DNA of 64,000 nt from Escherichia phage CL1: the sequence record OK040806; one strand, written 5' to 3'. Under the pieces are notes generated by a model, which was not told the DNA's origin, searched no databases, and saw only the letters and a program-made list of their open reading frames with translations. This document shows positions 15,327 to 62,686 of this stretch, piece after piece; within the stretch, counting starts at the first letter, position 1; the number at the start of each line of letters is the position of its first letter. The position numbers and the translations under genes are program-made.

Positions 15327-15857
15327 TTATTCCTCTAGCATATGTTTTCTAACAGGAATCTTCATACCATTCTCTGCAAGTGCTTCACCAAAAACTGTGA
15401 AGTACTTTTCAGGCCAGTAGATAGGTTCTCTATCATAGAGAGCGATGAAGTCACCCTCTTCAGTCTTATAAGCAATCCTTCCAGATATCTTAAACTGGTA
15501 CAGCTTTAAAGAACCATCATGGTATTTTACACAGGCTTTAAACCGTTCCTTGAAAGCATACTTAGCAAACCTTTCATAAAGGTCACTTAGTAGTACTTCA
15601 ACATTATCTACTTGTGGGATGCTTAAGTTATCACAAATATTTTTGTATTCTTTATCAAAATCTGTACAGTTAAATGGTGTAGCTCCAGTTTCATACCAAA
15701 ACTGTAGTATAGCTCGCTTTTTGGGTTGCTTATCTGAATACTCAGCCTTTTTTATCTTGTACCAAGCTCTACGAAGATTGTTGTCATCCATTCTCAAACA
15801 TCTGCATCTGAAGTTATGTTCTGCAACATATTCATCAATACTTTTGACATATTTCAT
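15327..15857 (-). CDS. hypothetical protein
   Basis: start moved to MKYVKS (GAGGAG SD; 4-nt overlap with upstream stop). Confidence 0.35.
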   Translation of the reverse strand: MKYVKSIDEYVAEHNFRCRCLRMDDNNLRRAWYKIKKAEYSDKQPKKRAILQFWYETGATPFNCTDFDKEYKNICDNLSIPQVDNVEVLLSDLYERFAKYAFKERFKACVKYHDGSLKLYQFKISGRIAYKTEEGDFIALYDREPIYWPEKYFTVFGEALAENGMKIPVRKHMLEE

Positions 15858-16051
15858 GATTTCTCCTCTGTATGATACCAAATGCCACAAACGTTACAGG
15901 CATAGAGATTTAAGTCACTCTTGTCAGGTTTATGAAAACAGTTTGACCCGCAACGACACCGGAATAGCTTACCATCAACACGAAGAATGAATGTTTCAAG
16001 CTCACCATCTTCTGTAAGAACTGCGTTCTTAAATTTATCTTCTGCAGTCAT
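15854..16051 (-). CDS. hypothetical zinc-finger protein
   Basis: 65 aa; CRCGSNC...CNVCG Cys cluster. Confidence 0.35.
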   Translation of the reverse strand: MTAEDKFKNAVLTEDGELETFILRVDGKLFRCRCGSNCFHKPDKSDLNLYACNVCGIWYHTEEKS

Positions 16052-17169: not shown

Positions 17170-19866
17170 TTAGTGTACTTCAAGCCAGCTTTTACCAACC
17201 TTACCAGTACCTGTTACAAGTGTTTCTTTCTTAAGACCTAAGTTCTTAGAAGCTTGTCCATAATACCAGTCAGTAACTGCTTTCACTTCTGCCGTCATAC
17301 TCTCTGGACATTCCCAACTTGTTTCATCGTGATATGCGCAGAGCAAACGAGCACCAATAGCTGGTTGACGACCATTCAACTTCATCAACCCTTCGTCAAT
17401 CATACGACGACAAGCAAGGTTAATTGCCTCATTTTGAATCTGGGCCTCTGAACCCATCAGATAGTTCAACAGTTTGTGTGGAGATTTACACCACAACCAA
17501 GCTCCAGCAACCTTTACAAATCCCCCTTTAGAGATTGCAGCGGTCTTACCAAACACCTCTTCAAGTGCCTTTTTAGTTGCTTTGTAGTCAGCTTCCAAGT
17601 CATCTAGCAGCTTCTTAATTTTAGGCAAACGAATAAAGTAAGTCTGCTTAGTCAGTGCACCTTCCTGAGTAGTTGCAGCTTTAATTGTCTTAGCAAACTT
17701 CTCATCACCTGCACCGAACAGCAGTGCATAGATACCATTCTTAGCTTTCTTACGACCCTTGCTAATCTCATGAAGAAGGTTCTCATCCTGAGTAGCTCGA
17801 CAAGTTAAGATATCCTGCTCATCATTCAAGCTAAAGTAAATGCTGTTCAATGTGTGTGCATCAGTCCCTGAATAGACAACGTACAGGTCATTCTCAGAGT
17901 CATAGCGAAGGTACTTATCAATCTCTGGGTTGAGGTACTCATCAAAGTGTTTGCAGTAATAGCGCCCATCTTCTTGACGAATAAACTCAATTTCTTCTTT
18001 GCCTTGCGTTACCGCTTTGGTGAAGTCTTTGTCGCCCATAAAGTTACAAAGGAGAACTAGCTGGGCTGAGTTCATGTCGACAGAGACAACGTTAGTACCT
18101 TCTTCACAAATCCACACTGCCCTCATTGGTTCCCCATAGACAGCAGCACCAGACGGTACGTTTACAATACCATATTGTGTCATACGTCCAGTTGAAGTAC
18201 CAAATACCATTGCACCAGCACTAAGGCGACCATCAGGACGAATCTGGTTCAACCAGCCTTTTTCATCATCCTTTGAGTTCTCAATAGTTCTGCGTCGGTG
18301 CATCAAAGTGTAGTACTTAGCAATCTTCTGTCCAAGCTCACCTTCAATCGTATCGTAAGATGATTCAGTAAGTTTTGGTGAAGTACGGATTAAGCAAGGT
18401 TCAAGCAAGTCTGTGTATTTCTTCACAGACCAGTTATGCTCAATGTACTGGACACCTTCGTGTTCAACATAACTCAACCCACACCGTTCAACCATCTCCT
18501 GCCACTTAGGATGCTTTGTAATCATCTTTTTGTTGTCTTTGAAACGACAAACTTTGACAGGACGACCATCTGAGTCTTTCTTGTAGTTCCAGTCATCTGG
18601 AATCCAACCAACTGACTTCAAGTAGTCTTTAACAACTGCCACCTGAGTCATGCGAGAAACTTCGAACTCAATTGGTGTATATGGTGCATCAATTAACCCT
18701 GTGTAGCGACTTGACTCCAGTTCAAAGTGGTTAACAACATGGCTGTTATAGTACTTCACAGTCTTGACTGTTTTTACTGGCTTCCAGTCTTTGCATTTCT
18801 TACCAATCTTTGCATTCAACTCATTGCAAATTGCACGAGCATCCTTCATTGCTACAAAACCTTCCTTGTACTCTTCACCAGTTATGGAGTTGGTTGGTGT
18901 ATAGCAATTTCTCTTTTCAATGTTAAAAATCTTTGTAGTTGGCTTACCAAATGGCTTGATTTCATATGTCTGCATCTCACCGTTACGTACCTGCTGACGG
19001 TACTTCGTCTTAGGATACTTGGTAATCCTCTTCAGTCCATCTGCATGACCAAATGCTTCAACATACTCATTCCAAGCTTTTGCAAACTCTTCTCCAGTGA
19101 CTTTACCTTTGGTCTTAATAGTTGGAGGAAGGTGTGGTTCAACTTCCGAAGCAAGCTCATTAGTCAACTTGTCAAGCTCCTTTACATGGAACTCCATAAG
19201 CTCTTTATCAGCTTTCCAACCATTGATAGCTTGTTGACTCATCCAGAAAGATGTTTCTTTAGCTCGCATATAGGTTTCATAAGTGTCTATACCACACTTC
19301 TTTAACTTCAGGTATTCATTATCCAGTGCACGTTTAGTTTTGGCGTTAATACGGATATCTTCCACAACACGAGTGAAGATTTCTGCATTCCACACACCCC
19401 AATGTTCAATCTCTGGTTTACGTACACCAACACGAGCACCCCATGCAGCCAAGCCATGAGCACCTTTATAGCCTTTTGGAGTTGGTCTATCCATCCACTG
19501 AACACGAGACTGGATAAGAGAGTCCTGAAAGAAATTACTCCACGGTTTACACTTTGGATTATCAAAGTTCCACAAATCAGGTGCGATGTGATTGAAAACC
19601 CACCAGTCATATCCCAGACCATTATGGATGCAAAGTCGTTTTGCCTTTAACGCAAACTCAACACCTTCACGCAAGCCACCCTTAATGTACTTGGTATACT
19701 TGTGACCGAGGATAGGCTCATCTGTAAAGACCCATACAGGTGGCTCTTCATTGTCAGATTTATAGTCTGCGAAAGCCATTACGTGCACTTTAGTGAACTC
19801 AAGGAGTAAACCATCAGTTTCTGTATCACCAACTAAGTGTAAGTTTTTAAAATCTACGTTTTCCAT
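17170..19866 (-). CDS. DNA polymerase, family A, with N-terminal 3'-5' exonuclease domain
   Basis: Exo I-like GDTETDGL near N-terminus; motif A-like DMNSAQL, motif B-like K..K.NG.YALLFGAG, motif C YHDE; start at ATG with GAGGGAG SD. Confidence 0.85.
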   Translation of the reverse strand: MENVDFKNLHLVGDTETDGLLLEFTKVHVMAFADYKSDNEEPPVWVFTDEPILGHKYTKYIKGGLREGVEFALKAKRLCIHNGLGYDWWVFNHIAPDLWNFDNPKCKPWSNFFQDSLIQSRVQWMDRPTPKGYKGAHGLAAWGARVGVRKPEIEHWGVWNAEIFTRVVEDIRINAKTKRALDNEYLKLKKCGIDTYETYMRAKETSFWMSQQAINGWKADKELMEFHVKELDKLTNELASEVEPHLPPTIKTKGKVTGEEFAKAWNEYVEAFGHADGLKRITKYPKTKYRQQVRNGEMQTYEIKPFGKPTTKIFNIEKRNCYTPTNSITGEEYKEGFVAMKDARAICNELNAKIGKKCKDWKPVKTVKTVKYYNSHVVNHFELESSRYTGLIDAPYTPIEFEVSRMTQVAVVKDYLKSVGWIPDDWNYKKDSDGRPVKVCRFKDNKKMITKHPKWQEMVERCGLSYVEHEGVQYIEHNWSVKKYTDLLEPCLIRTSPKLTESSYDTIEGELGQKIAKYYTLMHRRRTIENSKDDEKGWLNQIRPDGRLSAGAMVFGTSTGRMTQYGIVNVPSGAAVYGEPMRAVWICEEGTNVVSVDMNSAQLVLLCNFMGDKDFTKAVTQGKEEIEFIRQEDGRYYCKHFDEYLNPEIDKYLRYDSENDLYVVYSGTDAHTLNSIYFSLNDEQDILTCRATQDENLLHEISKGRKKAKNGIYALLFGAGDEKFAKTIKAATTQEGALTKQTYFIRLPKIKKLLDDLEADYKATKKALEEVFGKTAAISKGGFVKVAGAWLWCKSPHKLLNYLMGSEAQIQNEAINLACRRMIDEGLMKLNGRQPAIGARLLCAYHDETSWECPESMTAEVKAVTDWYYGQASKNLGLKKETLVTGTGKVGKSWLEVH

Positions 19867-20123
19867 TTTTACTCCCTCTAAAATCATTAACCTCATACAT
19901 TACTGCAAAAAATTATAAAAAGCAAGTTGACAATGTACTTGACAAGGTGTTAATCTTTGCGAAGTGGGTTTTTACTTAAAAGGTTACTTAACAGTTTAAC
20001 TATACAGATACTTTAAAACTCTTAAAAGATTATTTAATAGCTTTTAAAAAGCTTTAAAGTATAACGTATAGAATACGTTAAGATAAAAGATTAAAACTTA
20101 ATAGTTACTTAAAAGAGGCTTAC

Positions 20124-28579: not shown

Positions 28580-28907
28580 AGCAAAAAAGCTGTCTTATGA
28601 TGACATTATCTCAGGTGCTAAATTAGGTGTTGATAGTATCGGACAAGATGTTAAGCACGGGGACACAGTTATGTACTGTGACGACCGAAGAGGCAGAAGT
28701 GCAATCTTGTTTGGAAGAATTGTTTGCAAAATGCGAGGCAATTACGTTGTTGCAGACATGGATGTGAATGTCACACAAAAACTCGAAACAATTATGGATG
28801 CTAGTACACCATCATGGTTCCTGAATTGTATGCACACCTCTTCAGTCACAAAGGTAAGCGATAAGTTTTACGATATGTGGCAGAATGAGCAAATTTTCAA
28901 GATTTAA
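28572..28907 (+). CDS. hypothetical protein (GTG start)
   Basis: 111-aa ORF; GTG preceded by GGAG; followed by terminator. Confidence 0.3.
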   Translation: MSKAKKLSYDDIISGAKLGVDSIGQDVKHGDTVMYCDDRRGRSAILFGRIVCKMRGNYVVADMDVNVTQKLETIMDASTPSWFLNCMHTSSVTKVSDKFYDMWQNEQIFKI

Positions 28908-33060: not shown

Positions 33061-35205
33061 ATGAACAAAGTACAGATTATTAAAAAGAATGGCTCACTTG
33101 AAGAACCTGATATCAAAAAAGTTTTAGCAGCAGTAACTAAGTCAGCTAACAGGGTTGGGTATAAAGAACTTCCACCAGATGTTACCCAAGCTCTTGAGTC
33201 AGCATTTATGAGGATTCTGGTAAAGTCCACTAAGCAGAATAATTTGCTCATCTCGGTAAATGATATTCACAGTATTGTTGAGGGTGCTTTGGCAGAAGTT
33301 AATCACGAGATTTATGAGTCCTACTCAACATATAGAAATTACCGTAAAGAGGTTGCTCAAAATTGGGACGAGCTTTACCAAAAGACTAGAGATACACTCT
33401 TCTTAGGTGACCGTGAAAATGCTAACTTTGACAGCAGTTTAATTTCTACAAAAGGTTCAATTATTCGTGGTTATCTGACTAAAGAAATCTTTAAACAGTA
33501 CCATTTAACACCAGAGGAACTTGAAGCCATTGAAAAAGGGTTTATCTACATCCATGACTTAAGAGACCTAATTTTTGGTGGTATCAACTGTTGCCTGTTC
33601 GACATTGGTAAAGTACTGAAAGGTGGCTTTGAAATGTCTGGAATTGAATACTGTGAACCGAAGTCTGTGCTGTCAGCCTTACAGGTTATTGGTGATGTAG
33701 TTCTTTCAGCAACTGCACAGCAATTTGGTGGCTTTACTTTAGCAGAGATTGACAAGGTACTTGTACCGTATGCTAAAAAATCTTTAGTGTACCACTCAGA
33801 GAAAGCTGAAGAGTACGGAATACCTAAAGAGCAACACTATAATTACGTAATGGAGCAATTACAGAATGAGTTAACACAAGGTTTCCAATCTCTTGAAATG
33901 AAACTTAACACTGTTCCTTGCAGTCGCGGTGATTTTGCATTTACTACTCTGACATTTGGCCTGTTGGAACCAGATATGCACAATGAAGATAACCGTCTTC
34001 AGTTTATGATTGCCAATACAATCCTTAATGTAAGGATGAACGGGCAAGGAAAAAGCAAAAAACCTGTTGTGTTTCCTAAACTTGTGTATATCTATGAAGA
34101 GACAAGACATAAACTTGATGTGTGCCAAGCAAGGTTGTTTGAAAAAGCTATTGAGTGTTGCTCTAAAGCGATGTATCCAGATTTCTTAAGTGTATCTGGT
34201 CATGGTGCTGTAGCAGATGCTTTTAAGCGTTCTGGTAAGGTGATTTCACCGATGGGTTGCAGAGCTTTCTTATCTCCATATCTTAACGAGAATGGGGAAG
34301 AGTTCTATGTAGGTCGTGCTAACATTGGTGCTGTATCTTTGAACTTGCCAATGATTTACCAGTATTCTAAAGATAATGGTTTAGATTTCTGGAAAGAGCT
34401 TGATAAGTACCTAGAGATGATTCGCAGCTTCCACAAGAAACGCTATGAAATGATTGCTAACATGCCAGCAAGCTCTAACCCTCTTGCGTTCACACAAGGT
34501 GGTCTGTACAAAGGGACTAAGAAGCCTACTGATAAGGTTGGTTGGGATATCGTGAAGTCCTTCACAGCTTCTTTTGGGGTTACTGCGCTTGATGAGTTAT
34601 CTGTTCTCGCTGAAGGTAAACGACTTCATGAAGTTGGTAGCTATAGTTTTGCATACGATGTTCTGGCATACATCAACATGAAAACTGAAGAGTTTAAAAA
34701 TGAAGATGGTTTCTTATATGCTGTCTATGGCACTCCAGCAGAATCACTTTGTGGAACTCAACTAAAACAGTTCAGAGAAATGTTTGGTGTTATCAAAGGT
34801 GTTTCTGACAAGGAATACTTTACAAATAGTTTCCATATGAATGTTGCAGCAGACATCTCACCATTTGAGAAGCAGGACTTAGAAGAGCCATTCTTCCATA
34901 TCTGTAGAGGTGGCAGAATCCAGTATGTCAGGGTAGCTAACCCAGAAAACTTAACAGCACTTAAGAGTTGTATTACAAGAGGGATGTTGAAAGGTTTTTA
35001 TCAGGGACTTAACTTTGACCTAGCAATTTGTGAGCATTGTGGTAGCAGACCAAAGGCCGATGTTGAAGAATGTGAGGTTTGCCATTCACATGATATCTCT
35101 GTGATTAACAGGGTGTGTGGGTATCTTGGGTGGACTAAGATTAAAGGTGAATCCCGAATGAACGATGCAAAAATTGCTGAGATTCGTGATAGAGTCTCTA
35201 TGTAA
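33061..35205 (+). CDS. nrdD: anaerobic ribonucleoside-triphosphate reductase
   Basis: 714 aa; C-terminal Cys cluster (CEHCGS...CEVCHSHD) and glycyl-radical motif RVCGYLG. Confidence 0.9.
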   Translation: MNKVQIIKKNGSLEEPDIKKVLAAVTKSANRVGYKELPPDVTQALESAFMRILVKSTKQNNLLISVNDIHSIVEGALAEVNHEIYESYSTYRNYRKEVAQNWDELYQKTRDTLFLGDRENANFDSSLISTKGSIIRGYLTKEIFKQYHLTPEELEAIEKGFIYIHDLRDLIFGGINCCLFDIGKVLKGGFEMSGIEYCEPKSVLSALQVIGDVVLSATAQQFGGFTLAEIDKVLVPYAKKSLVYHSEKAEEYGIPKEQHYNYVMEQLQNELTQGFQSLEMKLNTVPCSRGDFAFTTLTFGLLEPDMHNEDNRLQFMIANTILNVRMNGQGKSKKPVVFPKLVYIYEETRHKLDVCQARLFEKAIECCSKAMYPDFLSVSGHGAVADAFKRSGKVISPMGCRAFLSPYLNENGEEFYVGRANIGAVSLNLPMIYQYSKDNGLDFWKELDKYLEMIRSFHKKRYEMIANMPASSNPLAFTQGGLYKGTKKPTDKVGWDIVKSFTASFGVTALDELSVLAEGKRLHEVGSYSFAYDVLAYINMKTEEFKNEDGFLYAVYGTPAESLCGTQLKQFREMFGVIKGVSDKEYFTNSFHMNVAADISPFEKQDLEEPFFHICRGGRIQYVRVANPENLTALKSCITRGMLKGFYQGLNFDLAICEHCGSRPKADVEECEVCHSHDISVINRVCGYLGWTKIKGESRMNDAKIAEIRDRVSM

Positions 35206-35556: not shown

Positions 35557-35952
35557 ATGATTAAGTTGAACAAAAAACAGTTAGAGTGGATTAAAGATTA
35601 CGCCTCAGAGTGTGGCTCTTGCGAAAAGAGTCACGTAAGATATTCAATATTCCATATAACCTTCACATTGTATATCAGTGACAACGTTCTGAGTGATTCC
35701 GTAGAAGACGGTGTAGCATTAACTAATGAGTTACTTGATAAACTAGCTGTAGTCACTGGAACTTGGTCTGAAGAAGACGGTCATGAATTATCTGACAATG
35801 TTGTCTTCTACACCATTGAAAACATTATGAACCCAGAGTATATTGCACTCATGACTTGTGCACAAGACTGTGTGCTCTTACAAGACTTCATTAAAGAGCA
35901 CTGTGAAGAGTTTATTACTAAATATGTTCCTTGTCAGGTAGTGTTTGAATAA
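35557..35952 (+). CDS. hypothetical protein
   Basis: 131-aa ORF with AAGGTGA SD. Confidence 0.35.
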   Translation: MIKLNKKQLEWIKDYASECGSCEKSHVRYSIFHITFTLYISDNVLSDSVEDGVALTNELLDKLAVVTGTWSEEDGHELSDNVVFYTIENIMNPEYIALMTCAQDCVLLQDFIKEHCEEFITKYVPCQVVFE

Positions 35953-36011
35953 GCAAAACAATTCGAAGAGAAGGTTTAAATAATATTTATATGTATTGGT
36001 GAGGTAACTAG

Positions 36012-36498
36012 ATGAATTACATGGAGATTAGGCCATTTGACACAGCTAATGGTGAAGGGGTTCGTGTAAGCCTCTTTGTAGCTGGTTGTAAGCATCACTG
36101 TGAAGGCTGCTTTAACAGGGAGTCTTGGAAGTTTAATGCTGGTAAAGAGTTTACTTATGCAAACCTCTACGGCATCATTAAGTTAATGGATGATGAGGCC
36201 ATCAGTGGGTTGTCAATACTCGGTGGAGAGCCTCTGGATGACAGAAATATTCAAGAGGTTACCAACATATGCAAACGTATTAAAACAGTTTACCCAGAAA
36301 AGTCTATATGGCTCTGGACAGGTTTTCAGTTACACGAAAAAAATTCACTTAGATGTGATGAAATATGTTGACGTGGTGATTGATGGTAAGTATGATTCAT
36401 CTAAACCAACAGTTAAACCTTATCGTGGCTCTGATAACCAAAACCTCTGGAGAAAAGAGTATGGGTGGCAAGGTGATTGTCAATGGCGAGCAGAATAA
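36012..36498 (+). CDS. nrdG: anaerobic RNR activating protein NrdG (radical SAM), reading frame interrupted at an A7 run
   Basis: N-terminal part (36012..36371) has C-x3-C-x2-C (CKHHCEGC); C-terminal part continues in the +1 frame (36337..36498, ...KKIHLDVMKYVDVVIDGKYD...); frames meet at AAAAAAA 36337-36343. Confidence 0.6.
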
Positions 36499-36580
36499 AT
36501 TTAAACATTGGTGGCAATGTTGTTGGTGTCACTGAAGAAGAACCTAAAACATTTTGTGAAAAGATTGAGAGAGATATGAA

Positions 36581-36838
36581 ATGGGAATCTGGAACAGTTT
36601 TAAATCAAAAGTAAAAGCAGCACTGGCATCACTAGGTATGCTCACTGGTGTTGATGTGACTCATCTCATGCAGCACTTCAAGATGGATGAGAAACTAGCT
36701 AATGAGATTATGAAAAGTATCTATGTAGGTCGTGGTAAAGGTGGTAAAAAACAAGCACATCGACCAACTGGTGCAGCAGCTATTAAACGGGCAGCTAAGA
36801 AAGCTCGTAACCGTAAACGTAACAAGAAGGCTAAATAA
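36581..36838 (+). CDS. hypothetical protein with highly basic C-terminus
   Basis: 85 aa; C-terminal ...KRAAKKARNRKRNKKAK. Confidence 0.35.
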   Translation: MGIWNSFKSKVKAALASLGMLTGVDVTHLMQHFKMDEKLANEIMKSIYVGRGKGGKKQAHRPTGAAAIKRAAKKARNRKRNKKAK

Positions 36839-41644: not shown

Positions 41645-44011
41645 ATGCGCATGGTAAACGACCACGCAGAAGTGATTAAGAGTTCAACTTCTTTAGAGAC
41701 GTCTCAAGCACAGATTACAATGACACCTGAAATGTTCAGCCTTTTGAGTTCTGGTGTATACACCTTTAAAGAAAGGGCAGTGATTCGTGAGCTGTCATGT
41801 AACGCAGTAGATGCTCAGAAAGAAGCTGGAAAAGAGAACATCCCGTTCCATGTGCATTTGCCTACTCGTTTTGAGCCTTACTTTGAAGTTCGTGATTTTG
41901 GAACTGGATTAACTCATGATAAAGTTATGAGTTTGTACCTAAACTACGGGGCTTCTACGAAGAATGACTCTAATGACTACATTGGTGCAATGGGTATCGG
42001 CTCGAAATCCCCATTTGCAATTGCTCAGTCATTCACAGTGTCCAGTTATGTTGATGGTGTTGTTAATAAGTACTCTGTTTATCTTGAGAATGGTATCCCT
42101 CAAGTGACTAAACTTACTACTAACCCAACAAAAGAGCCAAATGGCTTAGCTGTACGTGTAGCAGTTGCTGACCATCGTATCTCAAAGTTCTTTGAAGAAG
42201 CTGGTCACGTATACTCATACTTTGCTGTAAAACCGGAAAGTAATATCGAGTATGACGATGTACTAGCAGATATGAACGTCATTGCCCGTGAAGAAGGTGT
42301 TTACGATGCTATGATTCATAAGCAAAGCTGGCGTTCTGGTGCTAATAGGACAGAGTTTAATGTGGTGATGGGTAACATTGCATACCCTGTTAATATGGAA
42401 GCATTACTTGGTGATGATTTCTTCAAAGTCTTGCCAGAATTTTTCCGTAGGAGCGTAGACCTTGTAAACATCTACATGCCTATTGGTTCAGTTGCTATTG
42501 CAGCTTCTCGTGAAGCATTGCAGATGAATGACACGACAAAAAATGTTATCATTGAGGCTACTAAAAAGATAACCGAAGCAATTACAAAGGATGTTATCAA
42601 GAAAGTTAATAACCAACCTACACTCATGGATGCTGCACAGGCTTATGCTGAGTTACGTTTGAACTCACGAGAGATGTTTAATGCTGTGTGTCCAAAGCTA
42701 GAGTGGGGTGGTGTTAAGCTTGATTCTCTGGAAGAAGAATTACTAAACATTCGTCGTGGAATTATCTACGCAGAAGACGGCTCAGTCATTTATGAACGTG
42801 ACGGTAAAGGTAATATTAAGGTTGATAGGAACGGGAACAATATCCCTAAAGTAGATTATCTTTATGACCCAGTTGCTTATGTCAAGTTCAACTCTTTAGA
42901 GAGTAAGATTCGTGCAACATCGCTTTCCTACACTCAAGAGGCAAGTATGTTCAATATCTTTGGCGCAATGCGTAAAAGCCAAATTGAACAGTTTTTGTTT
43001 GTTATCAATGACCGTCGCAATAAAAATGGTACTGAGAAGACTGTAGGACGCAATCAAATCTTGCGTGGTGCATGTCGAGACTATGCCAGTGAGTCAAATC
43101 TGTTTCACAGATACAACGGTATTGTCTTTGTATTCTCTACTGAGAAAGAGTTAGACGACTTAATCAATCTGCACAAACTTGATAAAAGCTTGTTAAAGAT
43201 TGTGAAGATGTCTGATAAGGAACACCATTATCAGCGTAAAGAAGCTGTAAGAGGTGTTGTAAAACTCTGGAAAGCTGTTCCAGCAGAAGGTGTAGCTTCA
43301 TACACAGAGGTGTCAGAAGACTTAGACACAATTGAAGAGCCTCAACTTTATATCAAGGCAGTAGGTGATACTGTTGATGGTGAATGTTTTTGCTCATCTC
43401 CAGATGATGTAGCTAAGTCAGTTGCCAATGTCATTGGAAAGACAGTCTATGTTTTCCGAAAAGCAAATTGGAAAAAGATACCAGAAGACTGGATTGAAGT
43501 AGATGAGAAGCTCTTGAACGACAGCTTAACTGATGTTCACTGGATTAACCATAACAGATATATGACACGTATCTACATGAATGGTGTCCTTGACCTCACA
43601 AGCAGTTGGATTATTGCCAGAAACTTTACGTTCAATAACAAGAAGATTTCTCGTGGCTATTGCTATTCACGAGACACAAACAAAACTATCTTCTTAGAAG
43701 GTAATGAAGATGCTGTTGAGGCAATGTTTGGTAAAATCCAATACGTTGCTGCACCGTTTGCATACACTTACACTATTAGCGTGTTGCAAGATTTGAAAAG
43801 TTGTCTTGATAATGATACAAAGCTTTACAAGAAAATTAAGAAAGCTGGTGACCGCATGGTCATTAAGGTGACAAACTACCTTTCAAAAAGAAAACAAGAA
43901 AACTTCTTGCTTTCTCATTTAGATTGGAATAAAGTGTCACCCATCGAAGTGAGTAAGTTCTTAGGCTTTGATGTGAAGTGTGTTCCAGAAGGGACTACAA
44001 TTTACGATTAA
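41645..44011 (+). CDS. rIIA: rIIA-like protein (GHKL ATPase-like N-terminus)
   Basis: 788 aa; N-terminal ELSCNAVDA...DFGTGL...GAMGIGSKS resembles GHKL-type ATPase motifs as in T4 rIIA; followed by rIIB-like gene. Confidence 0.55.
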   Translation: MRMVNDHAEVIKSSTSLETSQAQITMTPEMFSLLSSGVYTFKERAVIRELSCNAVDAQKEAGKENIPFHVHLPTRFEPYFEVRDFGTGLTHDKVMSLYLNYGASTKNDSNDYIGAMGIGSKSPFAIAQSFTVSSYVDGVVNKYSVYLENGIPQVTKLTTNPTKEPNGLAVRVAVADHRISKFFEEAGHVYSYFAVKPESNIEYDDVLADMNVIAREEGVYDAMIHKQSWRSGANRTEFNVVMGNIAYPVNMEALLGDDFFKVLPEFFRRSVDLVNIYMPIGSVAIAASREALQMNDTTKNVIIEATKKITEAITKDVIKKVNNQPTLMDAAQAYAELRLNSREMFNAVCPKLEWGGVKLDSLEEELLNIRRGIIYAEDGSVIYERDGKGNIKVDRNGNNIPKVDYLYDPVAYVKFNSLESKIRATSLSYTQEASMFNIFGAMRKSQIEQFLFVINDRRNKNGTEKTVGRNQILRGACRDYASESNLFHRYNGIVFVFSTEKELDDLINLHKLDKSLLKIVKMSDKEHHYQRKEAVRGVVKLWKAVPAEGVASYTEVSEDLDTIEEPQLYIKAVGDTVDGECFCSSPDDVAKSVANVIGKTVYVFRKANWKKIPEDWIEVDEKLLNDSLTDVHWINHNRYMTRIYMNGVLDLTSSWIIARNFTFNNKKISRGYCYSRDTNKTIFLEGNEDAVEAMFGKIQYVAAPFAYTYTISVLQDLKSCLDNDTKLYKKIKKAGDRMVIKVTNYLSKRKQENFLLSHLDWNKVSPIEVSKFLGFDVKCVPEGTTIYD

Positions 44012-45216: not shown

Positions 45217-45241
45217 AGGCTGCTTCGGCGGCCTTTTTTTA
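45217..45241 (+). terminator. intrinsic terminator after rIIB-like gene
   Basis: AGGCTGC-TTCG-GCGGCCT stem followed by TTTTTTT. Confidence 0.7.
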
Positions 45242-50080: not shown

Positions 50081-50126
50081 GCCTTTCTTATCTGGTAAAT
50101 TTTTTCAGGTAAGGAGGGCTTTTTTT
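50081..50126 (+). terminator. long-stem intrinsic terminator after macro-domain gene
   Basis: GCCTTTCTTATCTG / CAGGTAAGGAGGGC 14-bp stem (three G-U) followed by TTTTTTT. Confidence 0.55.
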
Positions 50127-56249: not shown

Positions 56250-56522
56250 ATGGAACACGTCGAACTGACCACACTTTTACAAATTGCAACCGACAAAGAG
56301 GATGTAGCATTATTCCACCGCATCGAAAGTGATTTATTCAATGGTGAAATCATTAAAGAATCTTACGAAGTTGTCGGATTCAAAGACGGTAAAGCGTTCG
56401 GATTCTTTGACCTCGACAAAGGCAAAGCGGTTACAAAATATGATGTTTTATCTTGTGAGATTCTTACAAAATACAACGAAAAAAAGGCTTGCAACATACG
56501 CCAACATGCAGTAAATTACTAA
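56250..56522 (+). CDS. hypothetical protein (array gene 14)
   Basis: 90 aa; cassette B promoter embedded in 3' end of previous gene. Confidence 0.45.
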   Translation: MEHVELTTLLQIATDKEDVALFHRIESDLFNGEIIKESYEVVGFKDGKAFGFFDLDKGKAVTKYDVLSCEILTKYNEKKACNIRQHAVNY

Positions 56523-56838: not shown

Positions 56839-56888
56839 GGGGCTAAATAGCCCCAGATACCTTTACAGCCCCTTAAATGGGCTTTTTT
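56839..56888 (+). terminator. array-terminal hairpin pair: GGGGCT-AAAT-AGCCCC then intrinsic terminator
   Basis: hairpin 56839-56854; second stem AGCCC-loop-GGGCT 56867-56883 followed by TTTTTT. Confidence 0.6.
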
Positions 56889-62663: not shown

Positions 62664-62686
62664 AAAAAAAGGCTCCCGAAGGAGCC
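62664..62686 (-). terminator. intrinsic terminator after endolysin gene
   Basis: minus-strand GGCTCC-TTCG-GGAGCC stem followed by U7 (plus-strand A7 at 62664-62670). Confidence 0.65.

Follow-up and report, generated by a model that had tools for sequence, protein, structure and literature searches.

The interrupted nrdG of Escherichia phage CL1 is probably an ordinary Felixounavirus gene with a homopolymer miscall

The anaerobic ribonucleotide reductase locus of Escherichia phage CL1 was analysed in a 64,000-nucleotide stretch of sequence record OK040806, hereafter the window, to whose first letter all coordinates refer. NrdD, the catalytic subunit of the anaerobic reductase, receives its glycyl radical from NrdG, a radical-SAM activase. 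The window encodes an intact nrdD, as had been claimed in an earlier note made from the letters alone, and its length of 2145 nt is the same in relatives; nrdA and nrdB, which encode the class Ia enzyme NrdAB, are also present and intact. The nrdG gene that follows nrdD is divided between two reading frames. The features of the locus are as follows.

33061..35205, plus strand: nrdD, anaerobic ribonucleotide reductase catalytic subunit, intact, 714 aa, with ATP-cone and NRDD domains.
36012..36371, plus strand: frame-0 ORF of 119 aa, matching TIGR02491 over positions 1-112 of 154 (151 bits) and PF13353 over positions 1-98 of 137.
36337..36343, plus strand: A7 homopolymer at which the frame breaks; the run is A6 in essentially all relatives.
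36343..36498, plus strand: C-terminal ~51 codons of NrdG in the +1 frame, reading IHLDVMKYVDVVIDGKYDSSKPTVKPYRGSDNQNLW... and matching TIGR02491 over positions 115-153 of 154.

The frame-0 ORF starts at the ATG at 36012 (MNYMEIRPF) and ends at the stop codon at 36369-36371. The native NrdG N-terminus makes up its residues 1-110 and includes the CxxxCxxC motif for the [4Fe-4S]/SAM cluster (C26-KHH-C30-EG-C33), while its last nine residues, NSLRCDEIC, are out-of-frame read-through extending nine codons past the Lys codon of the run. The +1 frame, which starts in the A7 run, translates as (T)KKIHLDVMKYVDVVIDGKYDSSKPTVKPYRGSDNQNLW... until the stop at 36496-36498; in the GenBank annotation this piece is represented by an ATG-initiated 46-aa tail alone, labelled 'hypothetical protein'. 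The N-terminal fragment by itself scores above the curated cut-off of TIGR02491, the NCBIfam equivalog model for NrdG (151 bits against a cut-off of 126), and PF13353 (Pfam, E = 1.9e-34) is split in the same way. The profile matches are divided at the A7 run, and the frame junction therefore sits at the run. For comparison, the intact A6 protein of phage VpaE1_ev035 scores 197 bits against TIGR02491 over positions 1-153 of 154, and a repaired NrdG from the window would closely resemble it.

Alignment of nrdG with its relatives gives 487 versus 486 nt, a difference of one extra A, and deletion of one A yields a protein of 161 aa, as in those relatives. The whole NrdG domain thus lies in one reading frame with A6 and in two in the deposited sequence. 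Beyond the break, the sequence shows no degeneration and is almost the same as in relatives. The split gene is a bona fide nrdG whose frame changes exactly at a homopolymer, and the break is a precise one-base difference in an otherwise collinear gene rather than a chance pattern. The earlier note had described this arrangement correctly: the AAAAAAA run is where it had been placed, the N-terminal piece carrying CKHHCEGC does stop nine codons beyond it, the conserved C-terminal part does continue from the run in the +1 frame, and the single product of ~160 aa expected on removal of one A is the 161-aa protein.

Comparison with homologues, which the note had proposed as a check, returned the intact A6 gene in essentially every case. 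The nrdG region is 100% identical in the sister phage C600M2 (OK040807.1, Felixounavirus) and shows 89-95% identity to about 250 FelixO1-like phages. The Felixounavirus NrdG proteins, such as those of FelixO1 (NP_945003.1) and VpaE1_ev035 (VVC17459.1), share with the window a gene located ~0.8 kb downstream of nrdD, the CxxxCxxC motif and DNA identity at the same 89-95%; they differ in that the window carries an extra A in the conserved A6, which shifts the region corresponding to TIGR02491 positions 115-153 into the +1 frame. In relatives the A6 run encodes Glu/Gln-Lys-Ile (GAA/CAA AAA AT[T/C]), and FelixO1 and VpaE1_ev035 both have A6 within a 486-nt ORF. An exact look-up of the 119-aa fragment found two NCBI entries only, UCJ01269.1 from CL1 and UCJ01413.1 from C600M2. 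When GenBank was probed with 60 nt across the run, all 42 other matched records spanned 59 nt, corresponding to A6, and the three closest genomes (MT322327, MW481326 and OQ850289) all have A6.

The same state was found in metagenomic sequence. Thirty IMG/VR loci were retrieved by protein seeding instead of by an exact-flank pattern scan, and 28 of 29 Felixounavirus-like loci have A6 and the 161-aa ORF, even at 78% protein identity. A scan of IMG/VR for the A7 pattern gave no matches, and the A6 pattern with exact flanks gave only two, because the flanks vary. With tblastn, the out-of-frame junction peptide was matched in a single frame, among the top-ranked hits, in C600M2 only. None of the other, metagenomic sequences that cluster with the 119-aa fragment at 90% has the out-of-frame tail; two of these have the in-frame HEKIHLDV junction, and the rest end before the junction.

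The one exception in IMG/VR is phage EC6 (JX560968/NC_027369), the only other phage found to be broken at this run. EC6 resembles the window in that its nrdG is divided at the same homopolymer into two CDSs (114 and 46 aa) and in that it was sequenced partly on a flow-based platform (454 plus Illumina). It differs in having A5, one base fewer and thus a −1 frame, rather than A7, and in belonging to a different lineage. In the EC6 locus (NC_027369, 66442-68573), nrdD is annotated as an 867-nt CDS only, which suggests that this 454/Illumina genome has several frameshift problems as well. Contig ERR12075458 has an nrdG interrupted at another A run, located 36 nt upstream of this one. In the sequences compared, breaks in nrdG are scattered over homopolymers and individual assemblies, not over lineages.

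Contigs carrying the 46-aa C-terminal fragment were considered as candidate recurrences of A7 and rejected, as most of the metagenomic contigs just start at 36358 and none supports A7. Six unrelated metagenomic contigs start exactly at the ATG at 36358 of this fragment. The shared start is likely a de Bruijn branch point: the third base of the preceding codon is polymorphic in Felixounaviruses and the next ~40 nt are invariant.

Programmed recoding has as one defining trait a shift site and a two-frame arrangement that are both conserved. To restore the nrdG frame, ribosomes must shift by +1 (or −2), or the mRNA must lose one A or gain two; a −1 shift was rejected by inspection, as it meets a TAG within three codons. 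Rescue would be predicted to produce the junction peptide LHEKIHLDVMK after loss of one nucleotide or a +1 ribosomal shift, and LHEKKIHLDVMK after gain of two nucleotides or a −2 shift. If such rescue were programmed, through +1/−2 frameshifting or transcriptional slippage at A7, the gene would deliver the 119-aa product and full-length NrdG in a set ratio. The sequence A AAA AAA T lets tRNA-Lys re-pair in the +1 or −2 frame, RNA polymerases can slip on A/T runs, and a dead nrdG would be functionally odd beside an intact nrdD. Slippage is also known to rescue disrupted genes, and the 9A/9T examples of Baranov et al. 2005 (PMC1088944) share with nrdG an ORF disrupted at an A run, in which a base change in the mRNA restores the frame; they differ in that the window run is only 7 nt and its disruption is conserved in no homologue. 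In many bacteria, selection against slippage-prone A/T runs becomes visible at a length of ~9, and in occasional cases at 8 (PMC1088944); a run of seven As is below this. Programmed slippage goes with a long run and conserved overlapping ORFs, whereas the run here is 7 nt and relatives have six As in frame. The two-frame arrangement is not conserved, the single A6 frame being found in the IMG/VR loci other than EC6, in the other 42 GenBank records and in the three closest genomes. The codon in the A site is AAT (Asn), which is common and neither a stop nor rare. Inspection found no Shine-Dalgarno-like element upstream of the run, and the downstream 97 nt gave no stimulatory RNA structure better than in shuffled sequences (z = −1.2). 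Programmed recoding at this site is accordingly judged extremely unlikely.

The origin of the sequence bears more directly on the break. CL1 and C600M2 come from one wastewater plant; an Ion Torrent S5 was used to sequence both, and SPAdes/Unicycler with default settings to assemble them, at a coverage of 6,746x for C600M2 and just 37x for CL1 (PMC8759396). Both genomes are thus products of a flow-based platform without orthogonal polishing, the setting expected for a homopolymer artefact. Over 64 kb, CL1 (OK040806) and C600M2 (OK040807.1) show no substitutions and eight indel sites, each a difference in the length of a single-base run.

15389: A5 in CL1, A6 in C600M2.
15747: T6 in CL1, T7 in C600M2.
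17458: A1 in CL1, A4 in C600M2.
About 28582 (28583): A6 in CL1, A7 in C600M2; affects an ORF boundary.
45234 (45234-45240): T7 in CL1, T6 in C600M2.
50100 (50100-50105): T6 in CL1, T5 in C600M2.
About 56878 (56879-56881): G3 in CL1, G4 in C600M2.
62664 (62664-62670): A7 in CL1, A6 in C600M2.

With no substitutions yet eight run-length differences, at least one of the two assemblies must be wrong at each site. From their sequences, CL1 and C600M2 appear to be effectively one clone, and the ratio of 37x to 6,746x is compatible with, and suggests, possible carry-over between libraries. At the sites that the three relatives (MT322327, MW481326 and OQ850289) can decide, the deviant allele is confined to one assembly and in most cases is the longer, as with A7 at 28583 in C600M2 and with T7 at 45234, T6 at 50100 and A7 at 62664 in CL1. 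The CL1-private runs at 45234-45240, 50100-50105, 56879-56881 and 62664-62670 (T7, T6, G3 and A7) differ from both C600M2 and the relatives; these four appear to be intergenic, several of them beside GC-rich terminator-like stems.

A third assembly, Logan contig SRR15840093, was built from reads of the same project. It has the T7 allele of CL1 at 45234 and therefore most likely derives from the CL1 reads. This contig has an extra A at about 42537 (A6 to A7 at 42538-42543) that splits rIIA (41645-44011, plus strand) into 303 and 494 aa, whereas both GenBank assemblies call A6 at 42538-42543. The rIIA discrepancy shows directly that, at A6 runs, the reads do not distinguish clearly between six and seven. 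Two further coding sequences are touched by the differences between CL1 and C600M2.

15327-15890, minus strand: 187-aa ORF, intact in the window, between the DNA ligase gene and the next gene.
17170-19896, minus strand: DNA polymerase of 905 aa, an exact-protein match to UCJ01247.1 (CL1).

The 187-aa ORF is unannotated in OK040807.1, where it is broken by two extra homopolymer bases (A6 and T7). At 17458 the CL1 polymerase gene lacks AAA, an in-frame loss of one residue, and the protein has 906 aa (2721 nt) in C600M2 and the relatives; the shortening of A4 to A1 in the polymerase gene would be an exceptionally large miscall.

The break in nrdG is not the only run-length change that the assemblies have in common.

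56479..56485, plus strand: second A7 run, A6 in relatives, within the ORF at 56250-56522; common to the CL1, C600M2 and Logan assemblies.

The ORF encodes a conserved hypothetical protein of 87 aa, whose last nine residues are exchanged by the extra A for 12 different ones, so that its length becomes 90 aa. Of the A/T runs of at least six in the window, only those at 36337 (tacacgA7) and 56479 (acaacgA7) follow a CG, an association spotted post hoc. A flow-context effect would give such a pattern, whereas replication slippage would not.

The run-length census shows that such changes depend on length. Among runs that are 6-mers in the relatives, 3 of 34 are read as 7 in the window; the corresponding +1 change is seen at 1 of 156 5-mers and at 0 of 466 4-mers, and no run in the census measures 7 in the relatives and also in the window. 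In the reciprocal census the relatives likewise carry 2-3 private run-length changes per genome, so the number of such changes in the window is unremarkable taken alone. What makes the window stand out is the coding location of its changes and their bias from 6 to 7; in the two annotated relatives, private homopolymer changes fall almost entirely outside annotated CDSs.

The A7 run in nrdG is present in three assemblies (CL1, C600M2 and Logan) from two read sets, one of them at 6,746x. Most reads must therefore call seven, which excludes a random low-coverage error and thereby leaves either a systematic, context-dependent miscall or a real insertion. By our estimate, independent errors at about 5% per 6-mer would give two shared errors at ~0.6%, an improbable outcome. 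The two read sets share a laboratory and a platform, and probably the sequencing run too. Their lack of independence, the CG context and the coding location of both shared sites favour a systematic miscall.

A real +1 A, arising by replication slippage in the CL1/C600M2 clone, would make nrdG a very recent pseudogene or hypomorph. The occurrence of A7 in all three assemblies, including the deep one, agrees with this, as does the undegenerated downstream frame, which suits a very recent event, and A6 runs are natural hot spots of slippage mutation (PMC1088944). Loss of nrdG would also be tolerated under the aerobic enrichment and plaque purification used (220 rpm; PMC8759396), where NrdAB suffices. 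On the PGM, moreover, long homopolymers are mainly under-called, and indel errors of high frequency usually fail to recur from one run to the next (PMC3623719). This under-calling counts against a miscall, but the demonstrated errors in the CL1/C600M2 dataset are mostly over-calls. Agreement between the assemblies carries less weight than their number implies, as CL1 and C600M2 are not independent (no substitutions, same laboratory, same platform) and the homopolymer calls of the dataset are demonstrably unreliable and biased to +1. An insertion in nrdG would in addition have to be matched by a second at 56479, another coding A6-to-A7 change in ACG context shared by the assemblies, so that two real coding frameshifts are needed, whereas private homopolymer changes in the two annotated relatives almost all avoid annotated CDSs. 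A7 is found in no relative or metagenomic contig examined. Taken with this evidence, a genuine insertion is unlikely.

If the insertion were real, some NrdG might still be made, at a low level, through adventitious slippage of the host RNA polymerase (A7 to A6 or A9 in the mRNA) or +1/−2 slippage of tRNA-Lys, a combination that we regard as very unlikely. Were it to occur, the leaky rescue would keep nrdD usable anaerobically and would represent a natural 'saviour' frameshift in a nucleotide-metabolism gene of a lytic phage.

The break in nrdG is probably best explained as an Ion Torrent miscall, A6 read as A7, in an ordinary Felixounavirus gene. Flow-based sequencing is proposed to have lengthened A6 to A7 in nrdG, and the miscall would then have been carried into the deposited CL1 and C600M2 assemblies; the real phage would have A6 and an intact 161-aa NrdG, with an architecture identical to that of other Felixounaviruses. 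From the platform, the disagreement of the assemblies at homopolymers alone and the A6 of the relatives, all of which are observed, we infer that the nrdG call itself is most likely wrong. Known Ion Torrent and 454 homopolymer artefacts resemble the present case in the length of the run (at least 6), in assemblies of the same material that differ only at homopolymers and in spurious frameshifts of the kind described for the PGM (PMC3623719). They differ in direction and reproducibility, since the PGM under-calls while the change here is an over-call reproduced across two read sets. The earlier note had offered three readings of the break, a sequencing error, a pseudogene, or expression through transcriptional slippage or ribosomal frameshifting. 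Sequencing error gains support from the use of the Ion Torrent S5, from assemblies of the same phage that differ at homopolymers only and from homologues with A6, and recoding loses ground to a split that is not conserved, a run shorter than ~9 nt and the lack of stimulatory elements at the site.

The surroundings of nrdG vary in other respects. FelixO1, Pr103Blw, E9, Tf and many other relatives are longer by ~200-300 bases at some point within the 35900-36600 query region, and their alignments break there into two to three pieces; in the window this region includes the spacer at 35953-36011, from the 131-aa ORF to nrdG. In Pr103Blw the insert is an annotated 300-nt ORF directly 5' of nrdG. 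In phage ULIM3, prs and nadV are separated by an HNH endonuclease gene that the window lacks. These inserts represent minor insertion polymorphism within the nucleotide-metabolism module. Pfam searches of the neighbouring small ORFs gave nothing informative except DUF7390.

Should A7 prove real, CL1 would offer a modest example of very recent loss, or leaky rescue, of the activase in an aerobically kept phage, with no new mechanism. If the run is an artefact, the value of the finding is curatorial: OK040806 and OK040807 would carry several spurious homopolymer frameshifts, affecting nrdG, the 87-aa ORF, the 187-aa ORF and the ORF boundary at 28583. Both records need homopolymer correction, and it appears that a single phage underlies the two described as 'novel'.
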